Source of the DNA: Catajapyx aquilonaris
Taxonomy: Eukaryota
Reading direction: 5' to 3'
DNA: 48,542 nucleotides
Assembly (NCBI GenBank): GCA_000934665.2
Contig: JYFJ02002951.1
Location: 1 to 48,542 of the forward strand
The notes under the pieces were generated by a model, which was given only the letters and a program-made list of their open reading frames with translations, was not told where the DNA came from and did no database searches. Position numbers and translations under genes: made by a program. Numbering within the stretch: the stretch's first letter is position 1; every line of letters starts with the position of its first letter. Shown one piece after another: positions 11,003 to 44,014 of this stretch.

Positions 11003-14000
11003 TCACAAGTCCTGCCTCACTTTGGCAAAGTCATCATTTGGCAAATCTTGTTCATCAGATTCAGAAATCTCTTCATCCGAGATCAGTGTGTCTTGGTCAG
11101 TGTCTCTGAAACCACATTCAGGGTCATCGTCAGCAGCCTGCCTGCGACTCACATGGTAATCAGGTTCTCCCTCATTCTTTAGCTGAGCTTTTTGATGACA
11201 ATAGCGTTGGTGTGCCGACTCAGTTACTTTAGCTTCTTTTCTTTCTTCTGAATCATCATAGTGGTACTGCTCATAGTCATCATCCATTATCCCCTTTCCC
11301 CAGTCAATATCCTCCTCAACAGTGTTTCTCAGGATAAACACTGATGGCTTGGTCTTGATCTTGACTGGAGGGAAGCTAAGGTAATTGAGGTGAATGTGGG
11401 AGAAGCCATCTACGAAGTCAAGTATCTCGTGTGTTTGCTGGTAGTGCTTGAGTGAGTATGAGTGGCGGCTCTTGCCCTCAATCAGAAGGTGGGAGAAACT
11501 ACGCATGTCCTGCCCCCCGGCCTCCAGCTGCTCTGTCTTGTTGTACCTGCAAAGCCCTTCATTAGAAAAATGCCCTGTTGTGACTTTGATACGCGGACTG
11601 TGTAGCTAACAAACCTCCAGTTGGGGTTGATCTGCAGAAATCGAGAGGCACCAGTCTGTGCAGTGAAGACATCAATATGAATGCTGTACATAAGGTGTGG
11701 ATCTTCCATCTGGTGGAGGGTGTGCAGGGCCACTCCACCAGGGTAGTTCGAGTGGGACACGGCCAACAGGAAAGTTGAGAAGAAGGCGTTAACCACCAGA
11801 TGACTGCACATGCAGAGAGCAGCCACGGTGTGCCAGCCCGATTTCAGACGCTTGATCCATCTTAAATGAACATGGAAAGAAATGAAATCATTATTAGCCT
11901 GGTACTCACTTTTTATTCTGCTGTGTTCTTAACCCTCATGTATTGGAGTGAAAAATACTAAGGTTCTGAAGTGGTATTTTCAGAGGCAATGCTCTTATTT
12001 TATTTTAGAAAATTTGATTGTTAAAAATATCACAGACTATGAGGAAAATTTACTTCCTATGTTGAAGATCCTGCCACTGCACTGGTTAGGAGAAATGAAC
12101 ACCTCTAGAAATTATGGTGCATGCGTGAAGCATTCTCTGCAATTGGCCACCTTTTTCCTTCACCCTCATTAATTTTTATGTCTGCTGTAGGCTACTAATG
12201 GCAAACTTGAAATTTTGGCATTTATTCCCTTTTTATGTTTATTTTGAATTGGGCACATAATGTCTTCTTTTCTGGCAGCAGGTTGCAAAACTGGGCTGGC
12301 ACACCATTTGGCAGGAGGAGCTCAATTGAGGTGTAGGTAGTACTGCTCTAAAATATAGCCTGCACAGGAATATAGCAATGCTGCCTACACCTCTATATCG
12401 CCTTTGACCTTCTACTGCCAAGCAGTGTGCCTGCCCAACTTCCCACCTGGTGCCAATAAAGAAGACAGTGTGACGTTTTGAAGTCCCATCCATGGAAAAC
12501 TATCAATTTTAATGTCGAAATTTTGACCTTGCATATTAGAGCATATTTTTAGTGATTGGGGCCATGGTGGTCAAGTGGTTGTGTCACTAGCCAGCCAAGA
12601 GGCGGGGGGACCAAATCTCACCCCCATCAACTTCGCTTGGATGGGTTGTTTCCCCACTTTTCTATGGATGAGCCTAGGCATAATTGTAGTTTCTTTTCTG
12701 CCCAGGGCCAAGAGAAAGGCCTTTAATTTTCAGAGATCTGACATGACTCAAAACTCCACCCTTGGGAAAATTCCCTTCTCTTGTCCTTTCCGTGTGTGCA
12801 CACTTGTAACAACAATAAATAAAGGTTCATGTGGTATCAAATGAATACTCACATGCGATGACAGGCTGCAGCTGCTGCCGCATTGAGCAAGGGGAAGACA
12901 TATATGATGAATCTCAGCTCCTTATGTGGCAAAAAGGAATACATCACGATGAACATTAGAGCAGGAGCTGCTATTGGCAGGACTCGTCTGTCCAGGTAGC
13001 AGCCAATTGGTAGCAGGATGATAGAGGTGCCCATGGCCCTGGGCAGTGCAGAAGTGAAGTACCACACAAAAGGGGAGGTTCCCCATTCCCCAGAGCGGTT
13101 GTCCACCACATTAAACCAGAGGACCTCTCCCTCAGGCCACAGTGGTCGGGCCCAAAACACCGAGTCGACAACTACTGTCAGTGCCAGGCTGACCAATCCA
13201 GCAGGAATTGAGTATTTGATTGCCCTGGTGAAAGCAAGTCGTCCAGCTGCTAGCTCACACAGTAATATCAGGCCTAGAAGTCCTGCAAGTTCAGATCGAA
13301 ATACCAGAATGGCAAATGCTGAGGCATAGATGAATTTGGCATGGCTTTGGGACATCCAGAAGTGGAGGGCAAGAAGGGTTGGGACAAGGGCCATTGTGTT
13401 TGTCAAAGGGCGACTCAGGTAGAAGAGGAAGTGGAACTGGGATGCTGTGATGGCGACCAACCAGACACCCACACGGATGCCCAACATAGACTCAATGCTG
13501 CGACGATATAGGCCAAATGCAGCTAACACACATAGGCCTAATACTCCTCGCACTGTAATAATAAGAAAAAGGTATGTGATTGCATGCCTGCTGGTATGTA
13601 ATGCTGTTTAACCAGCCTTACCTACATACTGGGCGTAAACTTTACTGATCTGCAGCACATGAAGTGTGGCCACAAATGGTGCCGAGATGGTTGACACTAC
13701 AATTGGGCCAATGAACGTCCGTGGCACTACTCCGGGAAATTCAAAGTGGTCATACTGCAAAACCAAAACACAGCATTGCTTAATTACTGCGCTGCCACCG
13801 ACATTAATTATATCAGAAAACTGAAGACAGTACTTGGCTCAAATCTGTCCTGTGGTACAGCAAATCATGTGCGGCCTGCAGGTTGAAACTCTCCTCGACT
13901 TTGGTGTATGGGCAGTACAGCAAGTGAAGCGCCGCCACTGCCACCAGTATGAGATCAAGCTGGAAAAAGACGCCAGTGTGAAGCAGTGTTCCCTGCGATA

Positions 14001-14546: not shown

Positions 14547-16588
14547 ATGCCCCTGTACGAGGGTATCGGCCTGATCAGCGAGAAGTACGCGGTGGTCTTT
14601 GACTTCGGATCTGCCTATACCAAGTGAGACCATTCATTCATTACCTGACCTCGCTTGTGAGGGAAGTATTTTCAACTGTTGATCCCTGATTGAAGGTGCG
14701 GGTTTGCTGGTGAGACTGGCCCCAGATGCATCGTCCCAAGCCAGGTGGATTGCTCCAGGTCTAAGAAGAAGCGGCAGCTGTTCCAGTACAAGGACGAGGA
14801 TGACCTTTACCATATGCTCATTGACTTCTTGCACTATCTCTACTTCAGGTAAAGGGAGCACTGACACACCTGTTGGCCTGCACTGTACATCAGATGCACG
14901 CATATGGGGAACATGGCGTTAAACCCACATGATCACATCAGTCTCAGAATATAAAATTGGGCACTTTGACTAGCCCACACCTAATTGTGTGCCAAGCAGT
15001 AACTCCAGCTGTGAGCCTGTATTTACACTCTGTTATTGCTTCGTAGGCATCTGCTCGTGAATCCGAAGGATCGTCGCGTGGTGGTGGTGGAGTCCCTTCT
15101 GTGCCCTACCATATTTCGAGAGACCCTGGCCAAGGTCCTCTTCACTCACTATGAGGTGTCCTCTGCTCTGTTTCTTCCCTGCAGCCTAGTTGCACTCTGC
15201 ACTCTGGGAGTGGAGACTGCTCTTGTGGTGGATATGGGATACAGGGAGGCCATTGTTATACCTGTGTACAGGGGAATTCCTGTGCTCCATGCCTGGCAGG
15301 CCCAGCCCCTCGCTGGTGAAGCTATTCACAGGTTGGTTCTTTAACTGCAAGTTGCCGTTGATTTATTTCACTTCCGGGTTGTAAGAATGAAGCCATTCAA
15401 CCAGATGTGAGGTAACATTATTATTTTGTGATAACTATGAAAAGTTAGTGTTTGAAAGTAACTTCTTAAAAATTAGCAATGCAGTGCCAAAAGCATGCTA
15501 AATGAAATGGACACATCACTTGCAACATGCTGTGCTTTATCTGATTAGGATGATGCCATGTTCTTCTAGGAATCTTGACCGTTTGTTGGTCGAAGGTGGC
15601 CAGATGAGAGGAGAAGGTGATGAGCTAGTGGAATATGGCAGCTTATCGGAAGAGACAGTTGAAGACATAAAGGTTCGCACATGTTTTGTGACACGAGGAG
15701 ACAGGGGTAGCAAGATCCAGACTGCACGAGAAACCTGGGAGGCACAAAGGAGTTCATCAGGGGAGAAATCACCCAAGGCGGATGCTGTTGCTATTGGAAA
15801 GGAGGAAGAGGCCTTGCTGCCCACCCCCAGCCCTTTCCCAGTCACATATCCACTTGGGGGCAGCCAGGTGATGCAGATAAAGGGATGGGTTAGGGAGGCA
15901 GCTACTGAAATCCTATTCCACCGTGATGCTGATGACATATCCCTGTCTACAATGATTTTGGATGCAGTTCTTAAGGTACAGTGAGCAGATAATTGCTTTG
16001 AAGTTGAGGCCTATGTTTGTGATGCAAAGAAAAATGTGGCACTATAAGTTTCTTGACGAATGGGTGCTACACAATAATAATTATCAATCTTCATGGCTGG
16101 GTCAAGAGCAATATTGATTATAGAATTTAAAATATTTATTGGTCATCTCACAGTCTTACGCATTATGCAGGAGGTTTGTTTGGAAACAATTTGTTATAAG
16201 CATATTGCCTTTGCAGTGTCCACTTGACATGAGGCGTGAACTATGTGAGAACATCCTCCTAGTTGGTGGGACAGCCATGATGCCAGGAATGGCATCCAGG
16301 ATCCAGGAGGAGCTGCGTCTGCTGGTTAAAGAAGCATCTGATCACCCTTCCTCCAGACACAGAGCATCGTCAGCACTCCAGACATTCAAGTTCCACCATC
16401 CTCCTGCTAAGGAGAACTATGTATGCTGGCTGGGAGGAGCCATCTTTGGAGCCACTGATGCAGTGACCACAAGAAGCCTTCCCAGGGAGGTCTATCTACA
16501 GCAGAAGTGTGTCCCTGATTGGGCTAATCTGAGGCACAATTGCCCACCTGCTACCCGGGGAAATCTGAGTGAGGAGAAGAGTTTATGA
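14547..16588 (+). CDS. ACTR10: Actin-related protein 10 (dynactin Arp10/Arp11); exons 14547-14623, 14696-14848, 15047-15331, 15570-15975, 16217-16588
   Basis: [114 protein letters not shown]; phase-consistent GT-AG introns. Confidence 0.95.
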
Positions 16589-18808: not shown

Positions 18809-19836
18809 ATCTTCCTCGTAGCCTATGTATTGTACTGTACAGTGTTGGACATAAATCGAGGCAACTGCCAGCAACATTTTCCAAAGCGGCAGAAAAAGGA
18901 ATCTTACTCGCCTGGCTTGCAGCATGCTTATATCTTTGATTCCTTCTTCTGCCGCTTCGGAAAATGTCACTGGCAGTTGCCTCGATTTATGTCCAACACT
19001 GTACTATGTAGGCCTACACAGTACATACCGTGCAATACATACTACATGATTTCGTTTCGTGTTGGCATAGTTAAATATTGTAAATATAGTACAGTAGACT
19101 TTGTATGTAAACTTAGATGAACAATATTTCTTAGAAATTACCGTAACACAGCATTGCACAGTATTTCATGTTTTAGATTTTTTTCCTCCTCTTATTAACA
19201 TCTGACCTTTTTGTGTTCCGACCATGTCGCAGTCTCGTGGGTGACAAATAATTGAGGTTCTACTGTGTATAGTTCATCATAGTGGAATTAATAGACAATG
19301 TTACTCCTAGATATTGCGTACTTATGCTATCAGTTGCATTCAGGGATTATTTATCAATTCCTCGTCATGGCAATCAGCAAAAATTTTATCAGGAGTACAT
19401 AACTAGTTATTTGTTCCTGGCCCTATTTATTGGCAGTATTGCAGAATGCTGCATTTTAAATTCACATTTTAAATTTTGTTCTAATTTAAAATTGGCACAG
19501 GAGGCTCCAGAAACCTGACATAATTTTCATGTTTATGGCAATGATAGATGGCTGATCTTTAGAGTTGCCTATTTTTCACACGAACTGGAATTAATCTATC
19601 CGAAAACACGGTTCCCCGTTGTGTTACCCTGGTACTTGCAGGGGCCTTATACTGTGTAATCCGTATTCCAGTTATTTATTTTATTAATCTTACTTTTGTC
19701 ATTGCTGGCTACCCCATGCTTGGGACAATGCCATGAAGAAATGAATGAATGAAAAAAATATGTCACTTTTAGTTTAAAAAATGAAAGATTTAAAAGCACA
19801 TTATTTTTCTTGTTATAAAATTTTTATACAAAACAA

Positions 19837-20469
19837 CTATACTAGGGGCAAGATAACTCATGCATTTGGGGAGGTGGCTTGTGACCTTGGCAACCATAAT
19901 TAGACCCGCCCCTTGCTGAGTTTTTTGTATGGAATTTAGAACGATTGGTGTGGAAATATTTCCCCTCTGCTTGGTTACCAATTGCGTTAGTGTAAACAAA
20001 CTCATCTCATTCTAGAGGTTTTAGAACACAACGCCCATCTCCTTTGAAATCGAATCCTGATTGGTTGACCGGTAGGGGGCGGGGTTAATTAGTTGATTGC
20101 CAAGGTCACAAGCCACCTCCCCAAACGCATGAGTTATCTTGCCCCTAGTATACAGTAGGGAGAAGATAACTCATGCTTTGGGAGGTGGCTTGTGTCCTTG
20201 GTAACCATAATTAGCCCTGATGCCCCCTATACTTGTCAACCAATCAGGATTTGATTTCAAAGGAGATGGGCGTTTATGTTCTAAAACCTCAAGAATGAGA
20301 TGAGTTTGTTTACACTAACGCAACTGGTAACCAAGCAGGGGGGAAATATTTCCCCACCAATAATCATTCTAAATTCCACACAAAAAACTCAGCATGGGGC
20401 GGGGCTAATTATGGTTGCCAAGGACACAAGCACACTCAAAACGCATGAGCTATCTTGTCCCTAGTATAG
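19837..20469. mobile_element. Two inverted copies of a ~315-bp MITE forming a ~630-bp palindrome
   Basis: Each copy has TIRs TATACTAGGGGCAAGATAACTCATGC; the internal sequence of 19837-20152 is the reverse complement of 20153-20469, with scattered mismatches. Confidence 0.85.
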
Positions 20470-20764: not shown

Positions 20765-20785
20765 TTATTATTGTTGTTGTTGTTG

Positions 20786-20869
<84 letters not shown>
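20765..20869 (+). repeat. Compound (TTG)n(TTA)n microsatellite
   Basis: About 6 TTG units followed by over 25 TTA units. Confidence 0.97.
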
Positions 20870-20939: not shown

Positions 20940-23900
20940 ATGGCTCACAGACAACAGGCAGACCACATATGCTCAGTGGATCTACACTTCCAAGAAAAAG
21001 GGGTGGCAGATAATAATGTTGTTGTCAAGGGTATCCTTGACATCATGCTCGTGGATGTGCAATACATTTTGTCCAGCATTACAAGTGATGCCTCAAGGGG
21101 AATTGTTACTGCCAGGATAAAGTTGGAATCCCGCAAAATACAACATGAAGCAATGAAGAGACTGCGCGAAAAGAAATTTTCTGATGTGAAGATAGTAGCA
21201 AGGGTGATGAAAACAGATGGTGGGTTATGCCCTCCAGAAGAGCTAGACAAGTTTATTCAGCGTTTCAATAGAGAGGTCAAGAAGTCAGAGTCAAAACATC
21301 GACATAAAGTATTGGAAGTTGAAGAGAAGATGAATGGTGTCAAAGGGAATCTAGAGATCATCCAGGGCTCAGTACCCAAAAAGGCAGTGGAAGTTTCCAG
21401 CTGGAAACTGAAGCAGCAATCACAGTATGAAGAACTAAAAGCACTCCTGGCAAAAAAATCTGAGCTAATTGAACAACAATGGGTGTTTGTTAGTAAAATT
21501 GATCAGCTGAGAGAAAAGGTTGACTCTGATCTGGCTGGAAGTGGAAGCGACTGGAAGAAATGCTTGAACAGCATTGACTTGGAATTCAACTGGGAGTTGA
21601 AGGCCCTGGAATCAGCCCTCCCAATTTTGGCTTACAGATTCAAAATTTTGGATATGGTGAGGGACCACCAAGTGTGTCTGATCAAGGCTGAAACTGGGTC
21701 TGGAAAAAGTACTCAGATTGTTCAGTACTTGTACAGGTAAGCATTTTTCACTTATGCAACTGTCTGTATCATTTGGCTAGTGGCATCTACAGAATCACTT
21801 GACTTTGGAGGCAGATTTGTATATGCAGTCAAATACTTTGGAGTCAAGTGCTGCTTCACAATTTCTGGTACCAGTTTTTTATAGTGTATATAGAAAATAC
21901 AAAAATTGAGCATTTGTGATGATTTTGCCACATGAAAACTGCTGGTTCTGTACTTTAGTGGGGGCTTAACGTCGGCCTATTTCTGCCGCGAGGCTCAACA
22001 CCGACGCCAGGGGGTGGTGCTCCTCCTGGAAATTTGGCCACTCTGGGGATCTTTAACGTGCTGGTTCTGTACTGTAAAATTTTCTAACTAAACTGACTGA
22101 TTTAAAAAAATTGCTAATCATTGGTGATACCACTGAGGTATGATCAAGTATTAATGTTATCCTATAGTTACAATGTTCTCTTAATCTAGGTCTGGGTTTG
22201 TGTCAGGAGAAAAGAAGGTTGTGTGTACTCAGCCACGTAAGATTGCTGCCAGTAGCCTTTCTGAACGTGTGACCAATGAAATGATGATTGGGGGTCTGGT
22301 GGGTCACCGACTGATGGCAAGGGGAAGCAACAGGCGATGCAGAGAATCAATCCTGTTCCTGACTGATGCACAGCTTCTTCGACATGTCTCTGATGATCCT
22401 ATTCTGACTGACTTTTCCTGTGTAGTTGTGGATGAGGCTCATGAGAGGAGCCTTCATACAGATCTGCTATTGGGAATCCTCAAGGGAATATTGAAGAAGC
22501 GGAATGACTTAAAGGTTGTAGTCACTTCTGCAACATTGGACACTCAGAGGTTCCTGGACTTCTTTCCTGGATGCCCTCTAGCTCTGGTACCTGGAAGGAC
22601 TTTTCCAGTGGATGTGTTTTGGGTGGAGTCTTCTGATGTTGGAGAGAAAATTGGAGGAGATTATCTCCACAAAGCAGTTGAAAAGGCTGCATGGATTCAT
22701 CACAATGAACCAGAGGGTGACATTCTAGTTTTTCTGGCTACACCACAAGACACAGAGAAAGCCAAAGAAATGTTAGAAAACAAGGTATGTTCATTATTGG
22801 ATACAGTGCATTACTGTATTATTTTATTAATATGATGATAATAAGGAAGTGATACACTCCACATTTTCTTTACATTTTAAAAGGCAATCATTTTATCTTA
22901 TAAGTACAATGTGAATGTCACTTTTGTTTCAAACTCATGAGGAGTTTAAAAATTAAACTTCTAAGAGTCACTTTCCTTGTTGCAATTTGTAGAATACAGT
23001 ACTAGTAGTCTTACTGTGATCTGGAAGAGTTTATGATACGAAAAAGAAATATTTTTATATACTAGCTCATAAGACCTACCCCAATCTAGGTGATGCTATT
23101 GAATTTAATTGAAACCCCAATAAAACAAGGGCCCAATTTCAACCAGGAAAAATCAGTGGGTGCCATATCACCATAATATCACCATAATAATAGACATTTG
23201 AGCTACGTGTGTAGTAATAGTTCATATTATTGGAAAGGTGGTGCAAGCGTCTGATCAAGGCTTTTTTTGTGAGGTAACAAGGAAGCAAGACATTCTTGCG
23301 GCTGTTTCCAGTTATAGCTGGCACTCCTATTCAGAGTCAAGCCATGATGCAAAGCTTGTAAAGTTAGTAAAGGAATGGTTGTGACATCATGATTAATAAT
23401 TTTTACACTGATGGGATGTACTGTACAGTTGTTGAATAACGTGCAGTTTTGCACTTTTGAGTTGGGATCTTATTCTGTTGTCTGATATTTCAACAAGAAA
23501 ACATCCACAGCATAATATGCCAACCCACTGTTTTCTGCACTGTTAGTCACGTGAATGACATGCTTCTGAACTCTAACCCGACCTGCACAGTCTGTGGTAA
23601 TTTTCTTATTATTAGGTGAATTTACATGAAGTATAGAGATTGCAGTGGTGATAATTAGAGCATTACTTTTATGGATTATAAAGATTAAGCTGCCAATGTT
23701 ATGTTTTGTCAACTCATCCTGATGAGTTATTCCTGATGGGTTATTCCCATTCGGAAAGGCATTGTAACTCGCATGTCAGAGCTTAGATAAATGATTTAAT
23801 TTGACTTTTAGTTAGTATTAGCAGGCAATATAATCACCGAAAGTGATGAACAAGTAACTCTTTAAAAATTACCAGCTTATGTCAAAAATTATGCACCACT

Positions 23901-26900
23901 TTTGGCGTTTCATTGTTACTGAAAATTATGCACGAGAAGCAAGTGAAAGAAACTGATGGTTTAAAAATAACTGGACAACCTGTCTCTCTTCATGATATTT
24001 GTTGTACTGTAAATTTAGGTGATAATTTTTATGACGTAATAATTCCCTTTGATGTGTGTCATTGTGTTTCATTTGTATTGTTGTAGCTGGCTGGAAATAA
24101 GGTGCAGGTTCTGCAATTGCATGGGAGGCTCCAGCAACATGAGCAACACCTGGTCTTTGACTCTCCAAGAGTGGGCTACCGAAAGGTGGTGTTTTCCACA
24201 AACAGTGCAGAGACATCTTTGACTATACCTGGGATTGTCTACGTGGTAGATGCAGGGATGGCCAAGGAATGCCGATACAATGCAATGCATAACACCTCCA
24301 GCCTTGTTCTTGGACCAATCAATCGCAGCTCTGCAGAGCAGAGGAAGGGCAGAGCAGGGAGGATGACTCCAGGGAAGTGTTTTCGCCTCTACTCTAAAGA
24401 AGACTATGAAGCCATGGAGGAAGCAATGGTCCCAGAGATACGCAGGACCCATCTTGGTCATGCCATACTTAGACTTGTGCAGCTTGGTGTTTCCAAGCCA
24501 CTGAAGTTTGACTTTCTGGAGAGGCCAAGTGAAGATGCTCTAGAAGCTGCCATGTCCAGTCTCACATCTTTAGGGGCACTTGCTTATTCTCCATATGGAG
24601 GTGTAGTCATGACAGCTGTGGGCAGAGATCTGGTGAAACTGCCCTTGCCCCCACCCCTAGGCCATGTTTTGTTGAGGGCCCTGGAGCGAGAAGAAGGAAG
24701 ATTTGAGGCCCTTTCATGTGTGTGTCTCTTGGGGGCTCTCAGTGGTGCTGTCTTTTTTAGAGCAGGTTCTGAGGAGCTCATCCAAGAAGCTGACTCGAGG
24801 AGGATGCCGTTCTGTCAATCCAGTGGTGACCTAATGACTTCCTTGGAAGTGTTTTCGACTTGGTGGCAACAGCCTGATGAACAAGCTAAGCGAAAGTGGT
24901 GTGGGACACACTATGTTAACGGGAAATCTATGAAGGTAACATCCATGATACTTTTCCCACATTGTCACAAAATGACAAAAATTTGAATTATTTTAGGCTG
25001 CCAGGGAATTGATGAAGGAAGTGGTGGATGTATTACGCCAGGAGTTTAACATAATTATTGAGCATAGCTATAACAATGACATTCAGCAAAAGATGATGAT
25101 ATGCAACTTTGTGTGTTGTCTGCTTGCTGAGACTCAGGTCAAAAACCTCTGTGTTTATCGAGGTAACCCTAGGATGGGGTACATTCTGGTAGATAATTGT
25201 GACATTGTCAAGATGCATCCATCATCATCATTCAGCTACTTGGGAAAACACCCTCAGTTCATTGTCTTTGATCAGGTTTGTACACTTTGCTCACTGTTTA
25301 AATGCTGCAGAAAATCTTGTGCATATTGTGAAATGAATTGCTTGGTCTAGGTTCTCAAGACAAGTCAAGATTTTATGCATGGTGTTAATGAAGTGAAGCA
25401 AGAATGGGTTGAGCGTCTGCTGATGGAGGGGAAAGTGTCGAGGGAGAAGCTGGATAGAGCCCAGGCTTTGTGTGTACTGACAAAGAAGTATCGAATAGGC
25501 TCTTGTTTTCTGATTATTATCAAGGATGTAAAAGCTGAATTGAACCAAATTCTGGCATCAGGTGACAACACTGATGATGGTGCAACCAGGTACAACCTCG
25601 ACTTTTCAAAGGTGAAAGGTATCCTGAAAATTGATACGACAGCATCAACCCAGAGCATTGTAAGTACAATGGTATATGATAATGGTTTTGTGGATTGTAG
25701 AGATATACAGTATAATAATTAATTCCAGATACAGCCATATTTAGATAAGGCCCTAATGGAATGTAAGGAACAAGTTCTGTCAAAGCAAAGGAGACACCCA
25801 CTAGCGGGACTGGTTCACATTACCCTTATATTTGGCAGTGGAGGAATTTTGGTGGATGTACTACTTCCTGGGGATTTCTTAGCCATTGACCTAGAGTCAG
25901 TTCCTCCTGAAACAACAGACACAGATGTTAAGAAATACTTTCCTGAAGCCACCTCCATTTCTACTTCGGAAGTAGTCAGAGAAGGGGAGAGTTCTGCCAG
26001 GAAAATGCACATAAAATTCCGCTCTGTGCTTGAAGCCAAGACTGCATTCCACAGGTCAAGCAACTTGCCATACAAAATAAAACCACATGGAGTAAGGGGA
26101 GGTCCCAGATTGTCAGCTGTGTGTATTCTGCACGTAGGGTGGGCCAGAAGGAAATGCACCGGAAGAGGGAACATCAAGTTTACCAATGTGGTTGACTTTT
26201 TCAATGCCAGATCTTGCCCTCCCAATATCTGTGTGACGAGTGCAGGAGGCGTCACAAGTATGGTAAAGTGGAAAATAAGCTTCAAAGAACCAAACTGCAT
26301 TTTTATACCTGGAGGTCTGCATCCCTTGACCACTAATGAAGACTTGACAGAGGCAGTTAAGAAATGGTTTTTTGGAGAGTTTGAGGAGGCTCCAAATGTG
26401 TATGTGCAAAGTGATCGTTCTGATGAGACACCTGAAGTAAGTGTGAAGAGGAAGTTAATTAATTATCACGGGAGTAACAGGATGCATGTTTACTTTCAGA
26501 TGGCCAAAAGAAAATTAGAAAGCCTTATAGAATGGGAAGAAGAGAGTGATACTCTAGTAGAAGTGTATGGTGGGGAAAGGTCATTGCGGTGGAAAGGAAG
26601 GGTGTACATTAATGATCCTTCATTAGGACCAGAGTTGTTTAGTCGCTTGAGCAGTATCAATGGTGTGGATATGGGCCTTGGAATCTGTGTGCCATTCACG
26701 TGCAAGCTGGAGGTACTGTAACATGTGCATGAAATTCTTTTTATAGGGTTCATTCAAGTCTGACTGTGAGCAATTTTTACTTTTTAGATGCAGGCTGACC
26801 ATTATTGCTCAAAAAGGGTATATAACAGTGTGAAGGAAGAAGTGGAATCTATGCTTCAGGAAATGAAAAAGCTGTTTGGAAAAGCAAGTTTACATGTTAC

Positions 26901-29900
26901 TTGATATATTAATTTTTATGCACATATATTTCATTACCTGTCATTTACAGGATACTGCAGAAAATTTGCGTGTGGAAGACAAAGAAATGAGAAATGGAGA
27001 AACTATGTGTTTGAAGATAATTGCTTCTAACAATAGCCTACTTGGCAGGGCCTCTTATGCACTTGGGAATATTCTATGTGGTACGCTGGACTCCCTCCCC
27101 CCTCCACACACACACACACACCCTGAACCACTTTTCACATTCATACCCTTAATATTATATTGAAATTGCTTTTGCAGGAGAGCATTTTCCATATGTTGGG
27201 AAACCAATCCTTGCAACTCTAGTGGAAAGTTTAGAAGACAGCAATGATGGCTTGCTAAAGAAAGTTCAACTTGATACCAGTACTACAATGCAGGTTGACA
27301 GTAGGAAGAAGCTTTTGATGATATTTGGTACCAAAACTGCAATTTCAAAAGCAACATGTGAGATAAACAAGTATGTATGCTAGTTTTTTTTTTGTTATCC
27401 CGTGATAGGGCTCGAGGCCCTCTTTGGGGGGAAGGGGAAGTTCCCAGGGGAGGGCGCCATGAGATAGCCATTTCTGACATTCTTTAACACCAGGCCTTTT
27501 CTCCTGGCCCCGAGCAGAGAAGGGAGTGCAATTCTGCTCCAGCATGTCGGGTGAAAAGCGGAAAAAGACCCAGCCAAGCAGAGGTGACGGGGACGGGATT
27601 TGAACCCGGCCTCCCACTTGGCTGGCCAGTGACGTAACCACTAGACCACCATGCTGCCCTCATATGTATTCTAGTTTAAATTAATGATTTTATACAGGGA
27701 CTTGCTTCACTCACATTTTTCTATGGTGCAGGCCTAGAAAGCTATTCACTTCGGTCACTTGTGTCAAGGCCTGCAGCCTGTGGTGGTGGAGGCTGTTTTG
27801 TTAAGCCATGTTTGCATGTGAGTGATATGATCAGTGTTGTCATTCCTCAGCGATTAATCCAATTGTGTGGGGTGAAAGTAACAATCATGGTAACCATTTT
27901 TGCTCCAAACAATTGTATTCATCTCCCAGCGATGACATCTCTCAAATCGCTCACGTGTAAAAGCGGCTTTAATTGCTTCGGGCGTAGCCAGTGATGATGC
28001 CCATGGATCAAACAACCATGCCTAAACTCCCCTCCACCCACCCCCTGTCTCCTCCCAAGGTGCAAAGTAGTGCTGATGATGGATCTGATTGTGGCTCCAA
28101 TGCAAGATGGCCAAGTGAGTCTACGGCATGGTCTATGGAATGTTTTGTGCAACAATAGAAGGCACTTGTATCCCCCACCCCTGTTACTATGACTCTGTCT
28201 CCCCCTCTCCCACCCCCACACTCTACCGCCAAATAGAATCGAACATTGAATCGAACGTTTGAACATCGACCACTGAAAACAAAATTGGCTTGAAAACCTC
28301 TGCGTTCGAATGGTGGCTGTGCCATTGGTTCTAATGAATCTTCTAAACTCTAAAGCAGTTACATCAATATTATGGCATCATTCGAAAAGTCATACGTACG
28401 TTTCTACACCCGTGCATATGGCCATACCCAGAGACCAATTCAGCAAACCGTCGCATCACGACGCTGCAAAGGAGGGAAGGGTGGATGGGTCGAGGAGGGG
28501 GAGGGGTTGAGGGGATGGGGAGAGCCGCCACCCGAGATGTGCACCTGTCGGGAATGTCGGAAATGAAGAGGTCCCACCCCCATTGCACATGCTCGGAACG
28601 AGGCCTAATAGGAAGGTGGCTGCAACAATATGAGGCAGACCAATCAGAGAGCATATAACCATGCACGTCCATTACGATTTCAATATGATAGATAAACACA
28701 ATGATCTTTAATAATTGGCCTAGTTTGAGTTAATCTCAAATCACTGAACTAGTGAACAAGTAGTACAGCTTGAGGGTGATTTATCTTGAAACCCAACTTA
28801 TTAAATAGCAAATTTTGGTATTGATATTGTATGTTAGTGGGAATTTGGTTTAAGGGTCATGGGAAAATTCATGACTAAGGTAGCCCCATCGAATGTTTCA
28901 AGAAAGTTGGGCTTGAAGAGTAGAATAAGTCATATGCATTCTTTTTTTTCATGCATTTTTAAATCATTGGGACATTTTAATGCTTGTTATTGTTGTTGGA
29001 CCACCCCATGTAATTGTTTCTTCATATTACCAGAATTATGGACAGCATAGGAGATGAAGGAGTGAAAGAAGAAGTGATAGTTGTGACTTCTGGAACCATT
29101 ATAAGGTCCTTGCTAGCTCAGCAAGGTCCAACTCTGCCAGAAGTGGCAGCTAAGGCTACGGCAAGCAAAGTTCGCATGCAGCTGTACCCAAAGCCAAGTG
29201 TACATGTCATTGGGAATCCGGATTCTATCCAAAAAGTACTGAACTGCCCCTATATTATTAGAGAACAGGGGTGGGTTTTTCATCTGCCTGCTAAAGTTAG
29301 CAGATTACCTGCCAAAAATGGGAATCCAGAAAACCCATGAGAATCGTCAAGTAGATTTAGCAGCAGGATTAAAAACTCACCCAAATTTTTACGCAAAATG
29401 ATTTTCCTTTTTTTTTTGTCAATAGTGTGACTGAATGGATATGTCTAGCCATTTCCTAATTCCATTACTAAATAGCCATTTTACTGTGTGAAAAAACATG
29501 TTTGAAGGTTGTGGAACCTATTCTACCATTTGCATTTTCTTAAAATCACTTCAGATTCGCCTTAGCTTTATTTTTTAATCAGTAGATCTTTTTTTGATAT
29601 GCTTGTCCTGCATAAGGCTTTCCCATTGATAAATAGAAACATGCAATTTCCCTTCTACATCGGGTGCTCATTTTCATGATTGAAATGAATTAGGTACTGA
29701 CATTACAAAATGAAAGAGTGACTTGTGACAGTATCAACAAATGATACTGGCAATTCAAGGTCTCAGTTTTGTCAGTACCCAAGTTCCTTTGTTGTGATCG
29801 TACTCCATGAAGTTAGAGGAAATGAAATCAGCAAAAACTTATTGAAGAAGCTGTGGATTCAGGTCCACAAGAACTGAATATACTTTGCCAGGTCTGCTGC

Positions 29901-30887
29901 AAGAAGATAGAATTGGGTTACAGACAAAATTGTTAAAACTCTTGAAGTACAGGGTTACTACTTGCTCTCTGAATGGATATGTTAAGTGAGGAATCTTTAC
30001 GAGTGTCTCTTTTACAGGTTAGACAGATGGTAAGCGAACTGGAGAGTCAAGTTCAGGACAGGGAAAATGGGGAAACAGAAGATGATCTGGAGTGTGGAAT
30101 TTGCTTTACTCCTGCAGAAAAATGTACATCACTTAATGTATGTGGACATGTGTACTGTGCTGAATGTGTCCAAAGCCAAATGGAAGCCTGTGATTTACCC
30201 CTCAAATGTGCTCGAGAGGTTGGTAGCCATATAATTGTGCATTTAACAGCTTATTAGTAAGAAGTGATACTTTATTTGCAGGAATGTAGGGAGGACTGGG
30301 CTGTAAAGGATATATTTGATATATTGGGCAAATTATCAAAAGATGCAGAAGAGAAGCTTACAAGAACTGCTCTGGAAAAATTGATAGGAATTCAAAATCA
30401 AGACAGCAATTTTCAGCTAAAACACTGCCCTTCACCTAACTGCACTGGACTTTTCCGCACAAGCATGCATTCTGATGGTAATGGCGCACGATGGAGATGC
30501 CCATTTTGTTCCAATATGCTCTGCACAAGGTTAGCCTATTTTGTAAATGCCTATTTAAAGGTCTAGTGTCGTTAACACATATAATAATGAATTCTTTGTT
30601 TATGCAGGTGTAAGGTACTCTTTCACCATGGAATGACCTGCAGTGATTATGCTTGCACACTTAACGATGAAGACTACATGTTTAAGAAATGGTTGCGTGA
30701 AGATCCTGACAACCGTAAGCTATGCCCTGTCTGCAAGACGTATGTTGAAAAAATTGATGGTTGCAACCATATGAACTGTGGAAAATGTTCTGCACATTTC
30801 TGCTGGAGGTGCCTTATTGTCAAGCCCACTGGAGGAGAAATATATGCTCATCAACCATTTTGTCGTGGAGATGTTCATATCCAGTAG
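20940..30887 (+). CDS. DEAH-box RNA helicase - HA2/OB - RRM/KH-like - RBR (RING1-IBR-RING2) E3 ligase fusion, ~1,700 aa (plant DEAH11/DEAH12-like architecture); exons 20940-21736, 22190-22784, 24087-24935, 24997-25275, 25351-~25671, 25729-26436, 26500-26712, 26788-26883, 26951-27080, 27179-27372, 29034-29235, 30018-30218, 30282-30529, 30608-30887
   Basis: Helicase motifs I AETGSGKST, Ia TQPRKIAA, II DEAH, III SAT, IV LVFL, V STNSAETSLTIPGIVYVVD, VI QRKGRAGR; OB-fold MHPSS; RING1 CGICF...CGHVYCAEC...PLKC; IBR CPSPNC...CPFCSNMLCTRCKVLFHHGMTC; RING2 CPVCKTYVEKIDGCNHMNCGKCSAHFCWRC. The frame stays open across all 14 exons. An acceptor at 20929 suggests a further upstream exon. Confidence 0.92.
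27395..27660 (-). mobile_element. tRNA-derived SINE, family A, in a helicase intron
   Basis: Minus strand GGGCAGCATGGTGGTCTAGTGGTT...GGCCGGGTTCAAATCCC (A and B boxes) followed by a body shared with 32805-32960. Confidence 0.8.
27801..27971. mobile_element. PIF/Harbinger-like MITE (same family as 46133-46319)
   Basis: TAAGCCATGTTTGCATGTGAGTGATATGA ... TCAAATCGCTCACGTGTAAAAGCGGCTTTA: imperfect inverted ends. Confidence 0.55.
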
Positions 30888-31985
30888 TACATAAATATGG
30901 CCTAACTACACAAATGTAAAGGTTCATGTGGTGTTATTTTACTAACCTGAGTAGGATGATTTTCAATATCATTGATAGGCCCTAATAATTATAACAGAAA
31001 ACTTGCAGTTACAAAACCTTTCACTGAACAAAAGGGTACAAACAAGTAAATCATGTATCTCTAATAAGACACCTGAGGCAGAGTGGTGCTGAGGAAATGC
31101 ATGCACCCATGGATGTAAGGATTCCTGGCTCTATCCCAAGCCCAAGTCGACAACTCTGTCATCTTGGGTGGAGTTGGGTCATTTCTGGCTTTGTCTCAGG
31201 TGGGATTCTTTGAGACTAACCACCTGGGGGAACTCACAAAATGGCCTTTAATCACATTGCACTTTTGCCTTGCATCTCCCTGTAAAATCACCCTGCCCTG
31301 CCCTCTGGAGTCTGGACGGGGCATTTTACGGTCAAAAATGGGCACACAAGGGACAAGAAATGTCTGTGCAAATATCCTCCTTGAGGTATGCACTGTACCC
31401 ATTTATTATTGTTATTAATAGATTCTGGATTTTTGGGTAAATGCCTATTTAGTTCCTGTACAGTTTGGTTTTGTGAAGAGATGATGTATTCGTTTCATAA
31501 GTGCAGGATGTGGAAAATGTAGGTTTTATAGTGCCTAAAATTGCCTATTGTGGTTTTTTGCGACTTTCGTGCCTGCGCTGCCTATTTTGGGATAGTTTTT
31601 GAAGCAATTTCAGTACTTTTTGGTCCTATTCTGGACCTATGTTTCTTCAGAGGCATGTTTGTTTTTTGTGAAGGATTTTATGTGCTCCTGAAAGGACCAC
31701 AATCATTCAAAGGAATTAGTTTCACTAATGAAAATCTAGAAAAAATCTGGTAATATACTGAACAAATGGAAACGGGCTATAAACGGTTGAGCCCAGAGCA
31801 AGTTATAGTTGCTTGCACTTGGTGTCTTTAGCCCAAGTTTTGTGATGTTCTGTCAGTTTATCATTGTTATTCCGTTTTTGCTCTGGTTTGTGACCTTATA
31901 TTTTGTACTTTAGGCATATCAAATTTGTCTAGCTATTTTTTATCTTCTGTAGCATTATCTCAATATGACTGCAAAAGTAAATTTT

Positions 31986-32060
31986 CTGTGCCTATTTCAT
32001 GGTTTTTTCGTGCCTATTTCAGGGTTTTTTCGTGCCTATTTCAGGGTTTTTTGTGCCTAG
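31986..32060 (+). repeat. 22-bp tandem repeat (~3.3 copies)
   Basis: Unit GTGCCTATTTCAGGGTTTTTTC. Confidence 0.7.
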
Positions 32061-32269
32061 TTATTAATAAGGGCGACTGGGAGACTGGCATGTTAATGGA
32101 AAGTGGAATGTAGAATAATTATGTTGTATGTGGTAGTTGCAAAAGATTTTTGGCCAATTTAATATATTTTAAACATTTTATTATAAGTTGGTGTAGTTGT
32201 AGTGTAATAATGGGGATAAGGAATTCTTGATTGTTGTATATTAGAGTAAGTAATGTATGTTTCCTAAAG

Positions 32270-32960
32270 GGGGGCATGGTGGTCTAGTGCAGGGGTATTC
32301 AAGTAGTTTATGACAAGGTCCACTATTTACCTTTCCTGGGCCATTCAAGGTCCGGACACCNCCCCCCCCCCCCGGGTAAAGATATGGATTTTATATTTTT
32401 ATATGGTACCACAGGGCTCATTTTTGAAAATAGAAACATGTGCAGCAAGGGTAGAAGGGTCTATCAAGACAGGACATATTAAGACATTTTCGCCCTTTAT
32501 GATGTACTGTACAGACGCGTAGGCAGAAAATTTCAGAGGGGACCTCATTTCATAAGCACAAGGGGAAGAAGCCGTAAAGGGCGGGGAGCAAGCCCGCCGC
32601 AGGCGAAATTTTTTGGGGGGGTAGAAGGTCACACGAGCTTAGGTGAAAGTGGGAGATTTGAATGGGTGTGTATTTGATAAAATTGGTAGCACTTTTTCCA
32701 AAAAAAAACATAAATTAGTGATTTCTAATGCTATTTCAAACTGTCCTGTATATCGTCGCGGTCCGGACAAAATTACGGCGCGGGCCGCCAGTTGAATATC
32801 CCTGGTCTAGTGGCTGTGCTACTGGCCAGCGAAGCGGGAGGTCCCGGGTTCAAATTCCGTCCCGATCACCTTTGCTTGGTCGGGTCTTTTTCTACTTTTC
32901 ACCCAACATGTCTGAGCAGAATTGCACTCCCTTCTCTGCCCAGGGCCAAGTGAAAATGTC
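32270..32960 (+). mobile_element. tRNA-derived SINE, family A, split by a hAT MITE
   Basis: The 5' head GGGGCATGGTGGTCTAGTG at 32271-32289 resumes at 32805 with GTCTAGTGGCTGTGCTACTGGCCAGC...CCGGGTTCAAATTCC. Confidence 0.8.
32290..32804. mobile_element. Non-autonomous hAT (Buster/Charlie-like) element, 515 bp
   Basis: TIRs CAGGGGTATTCAA / TTGAATATCCCTG (12 of 13 match) and a perfect 8-bp TSD GTCTAGTG (32282-32289, 32805-32812) with central TA. Confidence 0.9.
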
Positions 32961-34537
32961 TGCTATTTAAGAGGGTCTGAAATGACTAAAAACTATTTAA
33001 GAGTGCCCTCCCTTGGGAACCTTGTATAAATCAGTAATTGTTTTGCTCCAAGAATTATACCAGATAATATTGACACATGAGTGCAGAAATTCAGTAAGAG
33101 AGAGGAGGAGTGTAGCATTCCGTGAGGGAGAAGCAAGATGCAGTGAAGCATATTTACGATACGAATAATTCTGCTGTGCAAAAACCTTCCGTACTGAACA
33201 AGTTTTTGTTATACTGTTGCCCGATTGCACCAACCGAAAGTACCGATCCAATAGCTCCTAATGGATCGTTAGGAGCCCATTTAATGTGTGCGAACGATCT
33301 GTTACGAGCTATCGAATCTGTAATTTCGTTGGAGCAATCAGGCATGTATGTGACAATATTACATTGATAACTCTCCTTTGGGACCAAGCCAGAGTTGTGT
33401 TAGGATGTGTTCACTATAGTCAGGGTCCATTATAGAGAGGTTTCACTGCATATGCAAGGTGTATTAGAAGATATTTTCACAGTAGGCTATACCAATTGTT
33501 TCCAAAGGTTTTCTCAAGTCTGAATATAGGTAAAAATCTTGCACATTCCACTCCTTGCTGTTGTCTTACCTGCAATTTAGGCATCTAGTTAAACACATTG
33601 GAAAGCTCACTTAATGCACTTCTCAATAATTGTGTGTATGATTCCACTCAAACCTTGGAGGAGAGGTCCAGGGGGTAAGAGGAAATTATTGATAGTTGTA
33701 GTTAGGTTTTTACCTATATGAATGTGAACCAACTTATAGACCATGTGGTATGTATAGTACATAGACTCCTATTGTTCCCTCCTATATGTTCACAATGCAT
33801 GCTAACAAAAGAGTATGTTATTTTGTAAAAATATGTGAAGTCTATCAGCCTTCTTTGGTTTCTGGCTGTGGCGCATTGTGAATTACATTTCAGTGTACTG
33901 TACAGTGCTTATATGCTGGCTATAATAAATTAAAAATAAAGTGGATAGCAATTCATTTTGGAGTGAACTCTGCATATTGTGTGCATGTCTTAAGTTGGAT
34001 TCCGTAGACCATGCGAAGAAGCATGAATTCATATGAATTTGTCTACAGCACCAATGAAGAGTCACGGACACCCTAGTTATCCCACATACTTTCACAGTAT
34101 TGTGCATTATAATGTGACAAGAGCAGCTCCTGTGGAAAAGACAATAAGGCAAGTGCATTTGGTATATACAAGACTGTAAAAACCGCATATGACTGGTAGA
34201 AGCATGTCACTGAGAGAGGTAGCACTAAATAATTATGCACCTGGTGAAAAATCTGTAGGCCCTACTGTATGTCAGAAAGCTGGGATTGTATTGTGCCTAC
34301 CACACATTGTAGTAGGAACTACAGTCATGTAGGCCTACTGTACTGTATTATAAAGTACTGGAATACATTGTAGTGTGTGGGGCAAGGAATTTATTGAAAT
34401 AAGTAAGGATGAGAACTGCTTCCATTATGGCAGAATGACCTCCAAAAAACTGAACATCATGTTGTATACTGTAGCGTAGCCTATCTACCTCTGCTAGATT
34501 AGTTAGCCATTATTACATTATAATTATTATCTTTGCT

Positions 34538-35445: not shown

Positions 35446-36936
35446 TTAGATCATTCTTGTGTCTCCCTTCATGTAGATGCGGTTTGCCTCAGCAGTGCTT
35501 ATGTTCTCATCAAGTTCATCGTTGTCAGTGCTCAGCCACTCATGAGACATAACCTGATCTATGGGTATCCGCTCTGTAATATCTGGCTCAAGCAATCCCC
35601 TCAGCAGGCATTTGAGGTTGTAAGAGACTGTGGCCTCTATCTTGCTCCGGAAGCACCAGTTCCGGTTCATCTGATCCTTGAGAAGACGCTTCATATTGGA
35701 GTCGTCAAAGGGCATTGTGGCATTGATCATGATGAAGAGGACGATACCAAGAGACCACAGGTCGGTCAACTTGGGGTTATACGGGATGCCGTTAACCACT
35801 TCTGGAGCAGCGTATGCTGCGGATCCGCAATAGGTTTGGCTAAGGATTCGCCGACCATTGTTGTCCAAACAGCTCCTAAAGGACCAGAATGGGCATGTTA
35901 CATATCTAGCTGATAAATATGTTGCCAAAGACAAAAGTCCAACCTAGCAAACCCAAAATCGGCGAGCTTTACATTCCAATGCCTGGATAACAGGATGTTC
36001 TCGCACTTGAGGTCTCGATGGGCGATATTTTCCGAGTGCAGGTAGATCACGGCCAACGCAAGCTGACGGAACCAAATCTTGGCTTGCTTCTCCCCAATCA
36101 TCCCATGTGTCTTGATGTACTCCAGCAGGTCCCCATTCTCGGCGTATCTCATGAATATGAAGACCCTTGGACCCCGCTGCAGGATGCTGTGGATCTGAAC
36201 AATGCGTGTCTCATTCTTGAGTCATAACTTAAACATCTGGAGGGTTGTTTACCTGGACGACATATGGGTTCTCAATCTTGGTCAGGATGTCTAGCTCTCT
36301 GGGAAAGAACTTTTCCAGGAAGTCCTTGGGTGCCTTCAGTTTGTCGAAGATCTTGCAGGCCAACTTGACAAAGACTTGACCCTCTTGGTAGTCAGCCTGA
36401 TGGACAGTGGCGTATGAGCCCTGTCCAATTTTCTTACCAATTGAGTAGCCCTTCTTATGCAAGGCCCACAACTCTGAAGTTTTGTTGATGACCGGAGTAG
36501 GAGCCATCAGAGGTCTCGATGGAGGAGGGAGATAGTAAGACCCACGAGGCATCCGGAAAAATTTTTGGGCCGAAAAATACCGAACTGGCGAATTACTAGG
36601 CGCCCATGTTAGGCGACCGGGGTGTAAGGCAGAGCTGGGCCTGCCCGGGTCGCAAGTTGGTGGTGATGGACGCCTCACTCTTATGGAATTTACAGAGACA
36701 TTGAGCGTTGCTACGCAAACTTGCTATTCATTGAGCAACAATCCATGCAAACATTACAAGCTTGCCAATGGCGCAAAGCACTTGTTGTTGTTGAGGAGTA
36801 GTGCAGGGCGTGCAGGGGTCACTGAATCACAGAGTGGTTTGTATTTTAGAAAGTCGAGGAATTGTTGCGCCTGAATTTGAACAGATAGGGCAAAACGCCT
36901 GCTGTGCAGGTTTCCTGTTGAACAGGAGGGGCTCAT
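35446..36936 (-). CDS. Testis-specific serine/threonine kinase (TSSK family); exons 36758-36936 (tentative), 36253-36679, 35944-36194, 35446-35875
   Basis: [89 protein letters not shown] are TSSK-type signatures. The start may instead be the Met at ~36553. Confidence 0.88.
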
Positions 36937-40816: not shown

Positions 40817-41803
40817 ATGGCGCACGCGGCCTTCCCGGCGGCCAAGCTGGGGGCCCTGCTCCTCAAGCAGATCAGCAAGCCCATAGCCAACATAGTCAAG
40901 TCCAGGGCCAAGAACAGTTACTTCTTTCGGACCTACATATGCATGCCCCCAGCTCAGTGTGAGTAAGGTTATTTTATGACTTATCAGTCAACATCTGCAT
41001 ATTTTGCGTCGTGTTGACAAGTAAACTGGGGCACTCGCAATTGGCACTAACCAGTACCCAGAGAGGTATTCTTGACTTGCATAATGCTTGGACTCAATTC
41101 AAGGTCACTGCTGATTGTGAGTTGAGGTAGTGCTCTTACAAGTACTGGTTGGCATTATGAATTCAGTTATCTTAATACCTGCACACTCTCGCTGAAGTGG
41201 GCCGTTGTTCTAAATAAAAAGCCAGGTAGCAAGGCATCAATGCAGCTTTTGAACTTAAAATTTGGTCCTGGCATAACATTGCAAAATGAGCCTTTAGACT
41301 ACAAAAAAAAAACCCATTCATTATTTCTAGTTTATCACTGGTGGGAAGTGAAGCTGAAAATGTGGGTGATGAACTTGGGTCGGCCTATCAACATCCCCCC
41401 ACTGAATGAAGCAATGGCTATTGAGCTTGGTGCCAGCCTACTGGGGGAAGGGATCATGTTTCTCGTGGCGGCAGGAGTAATATCTAATGAATATGCCCGA
41501 AGCGCACGAAAAGAGGCTGCGAAGGAGGCCGCCAGAGTATCTGAGCAGCAATTTCATGATCAGCGGGTGCGCCAACTTCACTTTGAGACCGAGAAGCAGC
41601 GAGCCCAAATCGAGGAACTTTCGAGGCTTGTGTATCATCTACAGTCACATGTTGTCCACACTGAGGCTTGTGTGGAGGCTCTCCAAGAAGAGGGGAAAAC
41701 AGGAGAAGATGGCAGCAGTAGGTCCAATACAGCCAGGCACATACATGTTCATGGGTTACTCCCACGAGCTCTTGCCTCTCTTGGACTCATTCGTAGTGTA
41801 TGA
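40817..41803 (+). CDS. OPA3: Optic atrophy 3 protein homolog; exons 40817-40958, 41331-41803
   Basis: [64 protein letters not shown]...[22 protein letters not shown] followed by a coiled coil. Confidence 0.95.
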
Positions 41804-43589: not shown

Positions 43590-43851
43590 TTGCAAATGTG
43601 TGCTGCAAACTCGACCCATTTATTGTGCCTGGTAAAGGACAGGTAAGTGGTAAGGATCAGTAGCAGTTCTGCGACTTCGTAATTTTCGTTGAAATTAAAT
43701 TAGCTGGGTTTGCTTTTTGTTGCCAGTAAGAATGTAGTACACTCCCATTATTTAGTTTTGAATTAAAATAATGCAGAACTGCTACTGATCTGTACCAGTT
43801 ACCTGTCACTTGCCAGGCACAATAAATGAATCAAGATTGCAGCATGCATTC
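43590..43851. mobile_element. Foldback/MITE with ~80-bp imperfect inverted arms
   Basis: CATTTATTGTGCCTGG...GATCAGTAGCAGTTCTGC (43617-43672) is mirrored by GCAGAACTGCTACTGATC...CCAGGCACAATAAATG (43773-43828). Confidence 0.65.
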
Positions 43852-44014
43852 GCCGAGTATGCATGTACAGGCAGGCCTTGTTTTATGACTTTTCATTTTG
43901 TAGCCCAGTTTTATTGGAACCTTATCCTATCATAAAACGGGGCTTACCTGTAGAGCCTTGATTATCTGAATATTTACAATCTTTTTATTATTTAAATACT
44001 GTATATATTTTTAC

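Follow-up and report, generated by a model that had tools for sequence, protein, structure and literature searches.

The Helicase subfamily (Helicase/Plant I) of the RING1-IBR-RING2 (RBR) ubiquitin ligases is one of just three RBR subfamilies that are traced to both unikonts and bikonts, and is described as ancient and repeatedly lost in animal lineages (Marin 2010, PMC2904391). The same account of an ancient Helicase subfamily is repeated in a survey of the soybean RBR proteins (PMC3904995). The plant members of this subfamily are Arabidopsis DEAH11 (At4g01020, DCS4) and DEAH12 (At5g10370), soybean HELRP1/2 and cotton DEAH12, and partners are known for some of them. Arabidopsis DEAH11 is the cop1-6 suppressor DCS4; it co-precipitates with Prp8/DCS3 and is treated as a spliceosome component (PMC11180117), and cotton DEAH12 binds NAC072 and blocks the activation of HOX3 by NAC072 (PMC13407882). 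DEAH11/DCS4 is called 'apparently plant-specific' in the Arabidopsis study (PMC11180117). This designation is contradicted by the animal relatives: corals, a brachiopod, molluscs and crustaceans have full-length members in which the domains follow the same order, and a sponge has a partial one. The gene analysed here is located at positions 20940-30887 on the + strand of contig JYFJ02002951.1 (assembly GCA_000934665.2) of Catajapyx aquilonaris, the whole of which (48,542 nt) is referred to as the window. It encodes a DEAH/RHA helicase, RNA-binding domains and an RBR module in one reading frame, and is an unusually divergent new arthropod member of this known family, not a new kind of protein.

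The coding sequence was rebuilt from the DNA. The starting point is the set of stop-to-stop frames of the + strand in the 20.9-30.9 kb interval, which already contain helicase, RRM, KH and IBR pieces, and the exons were delimited by frame-compatible GT/AG pairs with tblastn matches of relatives as a guide. The resulting coding sequence consists of 14 exons and 5112 nt, and encodes 1703 amino acids (aa). It contains a single stop codon, the terminal TAG, and no frameshift across the 14 exons. All 13 introns are of the GT-AG type; nine are 55-97 nt long and four are 453-1663 nt long. The preliminary description of this DNA, made from its letters alone, gave about 1,700 aa and 14 exons, and the rebuilt model agrees with it, with segment coordinates that differ by 1-2 nt at most.

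The relatives were collected with exon 3 as a query, which matches 4059 proteins at E <= 1e-10, the best of them with 48-49% identity, and the best 120 of these 4059 proteins were used. Most of these 120 proteins are 1550-1950 aa long and contain the DEAD, Helicase_C, OB, KH_DEAH11 and IBR domains together. The named full-length animal proteins among them are from Lingula, Acropora and other corals, Mytilus, Mizuhopecten, Mercenaria, Dreissena, Littorina, a chiton and the krill Meganyctiphanes, the krill protein (P0022) being the single arthropod, and the named full-length plant proteins are from ferns and angiosperms and include the Arabidopsis-type protein; the protein of the sponge Geodia is a partial entry. 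The full-length members from Lingula and Mizuhopecten are named 'ATP-dependent RNA helicase DEAH12, chloroplastic-like' by NCBI. A profile was built from the 72 of the 120 relatives that are 1550-1800 aa long. This profile matches the spliced protein in one stretch, from residue 6 to residue 1699 of the protein and from position 17 to position 1658 of the 1660 profile positions, with a score of 1306.2 bits. Likewise, tblastn with eight full-length relatives, including the Arabidopsis-type protein, gives collinear matches that begin in the N-terminal region and extend to RING2. Five domain families specific to DEAH11 are defined in Pfam, and the relatives carry them in the same order. These results suggest that the gene is almost certainly a member of the Helicase/Plant I RBR subfamily, as judged from its sequence.

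The plant DEAH11/DEAH12 proteins and the window protein share the order N-terminal region, DEAH core, HA2, OB, two RRM-type domains, KH domains and RING1-IBR-RING2, and they are similar in length (1767 aa and 1703 aa respectively). The identity to the plant protein is approximately 41-43% in the helicase exons and much lower in the middle region, where 10-14 residues per mapped domain are identical. The Arabidopsis-type protein (P0118) has the same ordered domains and aligns collinearly, so that the DEAH11/DEAH12 architecture assigned in the preliminary description is borne out. The animal DEAH12-like proteins (Lingula P0004, Mizuhopecten P0075, Acropora P0020/P0021 and krill P0022) have the same Pfam domain set as well. 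The fusion of helicase and ligase represents a known, ancient family, because it is present in these relatives, in the DEAH11 models of Pfam and in the subfamily of Marin 2010. The view that such a fusion is new in animals is not tenable, because the Helicase subfamily has already been described in unikonts and bikonts (PMC2904391, PMC3904995), and the view that it is new in arthropods is likewise overtaken by krill P0022, which shows the same domain set. The suggestion of patchy retention in animals, on the other hand, agrees with the published account (PMC2904391). The intact arthropod copy is an added data point on the patchy distribution of the family and, should the species prove tractable, may make genetic work in an arthropod possible; otherwise the locus is an ordinary, though divergent, family member. 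In Mytilus, several distinct entries are found (P0025, P0026, P0047, P0056, P0064 and P0081), with two LOC numbers in M. trossulus, and the family may have undergone a lineage-specific duplication in mussels. In a study of clams, DEAH12 is used as a single-copy nuclear marker (PMC8765752).

The locus would have to be read differently if it contained two genes, one for the helicase and RNA-binding part (exons 1-10) and a separate one for the RBR part (exons 11-14 or 12-14), split at the 1663-nt or the 782-nt gap, with the phase match as a leftover of an ancestral fusion. Both gaps (27371-29033 and 29236-30017) are roomy enough for a terminator and a promoter, and relatives such as P0003, P0015 and P0065 are without IBR domains, though these may be partial models. 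However, the splice phases agree on the two sides of each gap, the family profile matches the joined protein unbroken, exons 10 and 11 end without an in-frame stop codon, and exon 12 has no plausible start upstream of RING1. In addition, relatives of 1585-1738 aa (P0006, P0018, P0041, P0045, P0057 and P0086) have their coding sequences on Logan contigs that are only 5.5-7 kb long. Contigs of this size can hardly contain introns, and therefore these relatives are probably produced from single fused mRNAs in other animals. A split into two genes is accordingly given very little credence, and the single fused gene is retained.

The helicase half is encoded by exons 1-5. Exon 1 (20940-21736, aa 1-266) contains the start codon, the N-terminal region, the start of RecA1 and motif I (AETGSGKST, 21687-21713); its N-terminal stretch (20940-21638) matches no Pfam family, and the match of the family profile begins at residue 6. 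Exon 2 (22190-22784, aa 266-464) contains motifs Ia, Ib, II (DEAH, 22431-22442) and III (SAT) of RecA1 and motif IV at the beginning of RecA2. Exon 3 (24087-24935, aa 465-747) contains motifs V and VI (QRKGRAGR) of RecA2 and the winged-helix and ratchet parts of HA2, and exons 4 and 5 (24997-25275 and 25351-25659, aa 748-943) contain the end of HA2, the OB fold and a linker. Each of motifs I, Ia, Ib, II, III, IV, V and VI is found once. Exon 2 matches Pfam DEAD (E 4.5e-5), and its tblastn identity is 44-49% with the animal relatives and 41% with the Arabidopsis-type protein; exon 3 matches Pfam Helicase_C (E 5.8e-11). When the Pfam domains of four relatives are projected onto the window protein through the profile alignment, RecA1 is placed at aa 234-384, RecA2 at 430-557, HA2 at 619-716 and OB at 786-864. 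The OB region shares 18-30 identical residues of 75-78 with P0020, P0022 and P0118 in the profile alignment, and by Pfam on exon 4 alone OB_NTP_bind is matched with just E 0.078. HA2 and OB are thus assigned by positional homology. With all motifs present and HA2 and OB mapped to HA2_N, HA2_C and OB of the relatives, the complete DEAH/RHA helicase of the preliminary description is corroborated. The nearest solved cores are those of the spliceosomal DEAH/RHA helicases DHX16/Prp2, DHX8/Prp22, DHX15/Prp43 and DHX38/Prp16 (E 1.5e-47 to ~1e-40 over RecA2-HA2), and their motif set is identical to that of the window protein. These helicases differ from it in that their OB fold is not followed by an RRM/KH array or an RBR module, and in that they need G-patch or other cofactors. 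A search of the ESM Atlas with exon 3 gives generic helicase clusters only.

The RBR half is encoded by exons 12-14. Exon 12 (30018-30218, aa 1462-1528) contains a linker and RING1 of the C3HC4 type (CGIC, 30093-30104), exon 13 (30282-30529, aa 1529-1611) contains a helical linker and the bulk of IBR, and exon 14 (30608-30887, aa 1611-1703 and the stop codon TAG) contains the end of IBR and RING2 with GCNHMNC (30759-30779). By profile projection, RING1 is located at aa 1486-1519, IBR at 1556-1622 and RING2 at 1646-1687. The zinc ligands of the three domains are all present, and the catalytic cysteine, Cys1663, is located in GCNHMNC (aa 1662-1668), as expected from the full RING1-IBR-RING2 with a GCNH cysteine that had been noticed before. 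Sub-profiles that were cut from the relatives alone score 37.3 bits for RING1, 36.5 bits for IBR and 54.1 bits for RING2, whereas the 500 shuffles used as a control, here and for the domains below, score at most 6.0 bits over all domains. Exon 12 matches several Pfam RING families (E 7e-4 to 1e-2), exon 13 matches Pfam IBR (E 3.2e-5), and exon 14 matches Pfam IBR (E 9.4e-9) and IBR_1 (E 1.7e-8) above the cut-off. The residues required for an E2-dependent transfer of ubiquitin through a RING2 thioester are present, and the protein is a candidate for this reaction. The nearest solved RING2 domains are those of the Ariadne-type RBR ligases ARIH1, ARIH2 and CUL9 (E 8.5e-7 to 1e-4), which have the GCNHM catalytic motif and the zinc-ligand pattern in common with the window protein. 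Unlike these ligases, the window protein lacks an Ariadne autoinhibitory domain and a link to cullin, and its RBR module is located at the end of a helicase.

The region between these two halves is encoded by exons 6-11. Exon 6 (25729-26436, aa 944-1179) encodes a pair of RRM-type domains, which are the equivalents of RBD_DEAH11 (PF24475, aa ~964-1063) and RRM_DEAH11 (PF24637, aa ~1082-1172). The corresponding sub-profiles score 27.7 bits at aa 964-1063 and 19.3 bits at aa 1082-1172, as compared with at most 4.1 bits for the shuffles in either case. Pfam gives RRM_1 with E 0.0063 for exon 6, and the DEAH11-specific models are unmatched on this single exon. An AlphaFold model of exon 6, made from an alignment of 34 relatives in which four residues of exon 6, its first three and one near the end, are misplaced, has a mean predicted local distance difference test score (pLDDT) of 82.7 and contains two beta-alpha-beta units. 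The top PDB matches of this model in Foldseek are the tandem-RRM proteins HuD, nucleolin, PABP and SFPQ/NONO. The two RRM-like segments of the preliminary description are thus backed by the sub-profile scores and by a confidently modelled fold. Exon 7 (26500-26712, aa 1180-1250) matches no Pfam family and may represent a linker or a remnant of an additional RRM. The intron that precedes it (26437-26499) is 63 nt long, in frame and stop-free, and has strong GTAAGT/TTTCAG sites; its removal is favoured by 5.3 bits, with a profile score of 1306.2 as compared with 1300.9 if it is kept. Its retention would lengthen the stretch from the second RRM to exon 7 by 21 residues.

Three KH positions follow in the profile alignment, at aa 1253-1328, 1329-1405 and 1406-1472. 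The first, KH_DEAH11_1st (PF24638), corresponds to exons 8 and 9 (26788-26895 and 26951-27080, aa 1251-1330), and weak tblastn matches from several relatives are detected in this region at 26806-26886 and 26933-27142. This position is absent from the segments listed in the preliminary description. The second, KH_DEAH11_2nd (PF24641), corresponds to exon 10 (27178-27370, aa 1330-1394). Its sub-profile scores 27.7 bits on the protein and 34.9 bits on the raw frame, approximately 30 relatives match 27252-27377 in tblastn, and Pfam gives PF24641 (E 0.0032) and PF24471 (E 0.0041), both below the Pfam cut-off. The third, KH_DEAH11 (PF24471), is located directly before RING1 in the family and corresponds in position to exon 11 (29034-29235, aa 1394-1461), in which a KH domain is unrecognisable. 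Of the two KH-like segments that had been proposed, the one at 27179-27372 is therefore supported by its score of 27.7 bits, whereas the one at 29034-29235 has a KH assignment by position in the family alignment only.

Taken together with the intact reading frame, the locus is very probably one intact gene, a divergent orthologue of the Helicase/Plant I RBR ligases, and its product would act on ribonucleoproteins (RNPs). By what is established for DEAH/RHA helicases and for RBR ligases in general, the helicase would hydrolyse nucleoside triphosphate and thereby pull single-stranded RNA within an RNP, the RRM and KH domains would select or hold the RNA or the RNP, and the RBR module would transfer ubiquitin from an E2 enzyme through Cys1663 to a protein that belongs to this RNP or lies close to it. 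We consider it reasonably probable, with less confidence than the orthology itself, that on RNPs the activity of the helicase is functionally coupled to that of the ligase. The most likely setting, as far as this analysis suggests, is pre-mRNA splicing or other remodelling or quality control of nuclear RNPs, not the sensing of pathogens, because the gene is homologous to Arabidopsis DEAH11/DCS4 and the nearest solved helicases are spliceosomal. A preprint on red coral lists the gene under spliceosomal terms. That the setting is specifically the spliceosome is only tentatively proposed, and is judged somewhat improbable. The literature searches turned up no functional study of the family in an animal.

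Several observations weigh against this reading. The link to the spliceosome comes from a single plant study, and may not apply to animals. Neither an ATPase nor an E3 activity is reported for any family member in the papers examined, and the paper on cotton DEAH12 mentions ubiquitin once in its main text (PMC13407882). We infer, from the sequence of the locus, that it is expressed as one transcript. The Foldseek E-values for exon 6 are 2.6e-3 upward, none being 0.001 or lower, and exon 6 alone as a query finds no relative in two large searches, one of which is an exhaustive HMMER search of 1.84 billion representatives. These single-sequence searches are empty because the middle region is too divergent. 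The sub-profile of KH_DEAH11_1st gives a weak score of 10.2 bits over 28 residues, as compared with at most 5.3 bits for the shuffles. KH_DEAH11 is not detected in exon 11, for which Pfam gives no match and the sub-profile of the family a score of only 3.1 bits, whereas in the relatives this is the best-conserved middle domain (62-99 bits), and in the animal DEAH12-like proteins named above it is clear (62-78 bits). A hidden exon was considered as the source of the third KH domain, and this idea is ruled out by profile scans of the three forward frames of 27000-30100, in which no better KH exon is found. The single-sequence AlphaFold model of exon 11 (pLDDT 60.4, predicted template modelling score 0.21) is too poor for a structure search, the ESM Atlas gives no usable match for this exon, and MAFFT scatters its 67 residues across the full-length relatives, so that this alignment was discarded. 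The domain encoded by exon 11 has the right length for the third KH position, and its assignment as KH is by position only.

The divergence of the whole protein weighs in the same direction. Trees were made with rows chosen from the 120 relatives, one with 43 rows (FastTree) and the other with 24 rows (IQ-TREE quick, LG+G4). The window protein has the longest branch in both, with 1.79 changes per column as compared with a median of 0.36 in the former and 1.62 as compared with 0.54 in the latter, which is approximately 3-5 times the median. Its identity to any row of the tree is at most 31%, and this maximum is reached with the krill protein over 1515 kept alignment columns. The placement itself, on the other hand, speaks for membership of the family. 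In both trees the window protein is found inside the animal clade, with the DEAH12-like proteins named above, and in the maximum-likelihood tree it is placed within the bilaterian clade, with a support of 92 in the Shimodaira-Hasegawa-like approximate likelihood-ratio test (SH-aLRT) and without a firm sister, and a clade with the krill group is not rejected in the approximately unbiased (AU) test (p 0.344).

A long branch, an unrecognisable third KH position, a weak first one and an exon 6 that finds no relative when used alone would all be expected if constraint on the gene were relaxed and the gene were heading for loss, with the cores still looking intact and the middle already decayed, and the frequent loss of the family in animals (PMC2904391) fits this course. 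The gene nevertheless extends over 5112 nt and 14 exons without a premature stop codon or a frameshift, with 13 canonical introns and with all zinc ligands and catalytic motifs intact. Among the 210 columns that are conserved in at least 90% of the family, 186 are kept by the window protein, which is above the value of the lowest relative and below the median (157-210 in the 72 relatives, median 206), and the 24 columns that are missed mostly show conservative changes. Even the divergent exon 6 is predicted to fold as two confident RRM-type domains. Decay under relaxed constraint is for these reasons regarded as highly improbable, and the divergent protein is interpreted as that of an intact gene.

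The preliminary description interpreted the gene as a single-chain, RNA-activated ubiquitin ligase that possibly functions in antiviral or innate immunity or in ribosome or RNA quality control. On this view, the RBR module would be activated when foreign or aberrant RNA is bound by the helicase and by the RRM/KH domains. The architecture would permit this, with an RNA motor, RNA-binding domains and an E3 module in one chain. Fast evolution and patchy retention are frequent in immune genes; these two features are compatible with an immune role and not specific to it, and the long branch could equally reflect the whole lineage. The several Mytilus entries may point to multiple copies in mussels. 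ZNFX1, another helicase, is reported as an immune E3. RNF213, ZNFX1 and RIG-I/RIPLET resemble the window protein in the broad principle that ubiquitin ligation is linked to a nucleic-acid motor; to our knowledge, they are not homologous to the Helicase/Plant I family, and have different motor classes and E3 modules. The proposal thus proceeds by analogy alone with unrelated helicase-E3 pairs, and no support for it is found. The sequence searches lead to DEAH/RHA helicases and Ariadne-type RBR ligases, with no immune proteins among the matches. Among the papers found for DEAH11/DEAH12 and the Arabidopsis gene codes, none names an immune role for the gene in its title or in the opening of its abstract, and those found for RBR helicases in arthropods include no immune study of the family. 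The plant data point instead to splicing and the control of transcription (PMC11180117, PMC13407882), and the use of clam DEAH12 as a single-copy marker (PMC8765752) also counts against the proposal. An RNA-activated ligase of this kind is therefore considered unlikely.

A related and speculative possibility is that in this arthropod lineage the ancient helicase-RBR protein has been kept, and has then evolved fast, through its re-use as an RNA-triggered ligase that marks proteins bound to aberrant or foreign RNA, and would thus serve as a cell-intrinsic surveillance or antiviral device that would be absent from insects and vertebrates. If this were true, the remodelled domain at the third KH position would represent a changed specificity for RNA or a partner. 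This possibility is rated as quite improbable, and action on nuclear RNPs is preferred.

A TADA2B-like exon is located 17 kb 5' of the gene (2703-3599, - strand). Its named matches in the first 93 rows are all from arthropods, namely insects and branchiopod and decapod crustaceans, with a best identity of 59%, and the first non-arthropod match is from a fish (row 94, 48%). This result supports the assignment of the DNA to a pancrustacean-type arthropod genome, with no close relative in the database, and is in line with the arthropod-type genome named in the preliminary description. The other neighbours are an Alg9/ALG12-type mannosyltransferase (12849-13607, -), an actin-related protein (16124-16588, +), a Ser/Thr kinase (35446-36723, -), a TPD-motif protein (PF14811; 39458-39982, -), OPA3 (41126-41803, +) and an ion-transport protein (47299-47727, +). 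As far as can be judged from their sequences, the neighbours look like ordinary housekeeping genes, and none hints at an immune cluster.

At the 5' side of the gene, a (TTA)35 microsatellite with 98% matches (20765-20869) stops 70 nt short of the start codon, and an acceptor-like TTGCAG stands immediately 5' of the ATG, so that an intron in the 5' untranslated region is possible. At the 3' side, neither AATAAA nor ATTAAA is found in the 1.6 kb downstream of the stop codon (30888-32500), and a 22-nt tandem repeat with 3.5 copies is located at 31982-32059. A scan of the window against Rfam gives no match. Approximately 500 nt 5' of the gene, two inverted-repeat arms of approximately 155 nt (19877-20031 and 20274-20431) are 93-94% complementary and 242 nt apart, and similar smaller pairs are found at 18837-19004 and 43592-43853. 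These pairs look like hairpin elements of the miniature inverted-repeat transposable element (MITE) type. Finally, a 145-nt inverted repeat is found in intron 10 (27465-27609) and at 32844-32988 with 83% complementarity, and is probably a dispersed short element.

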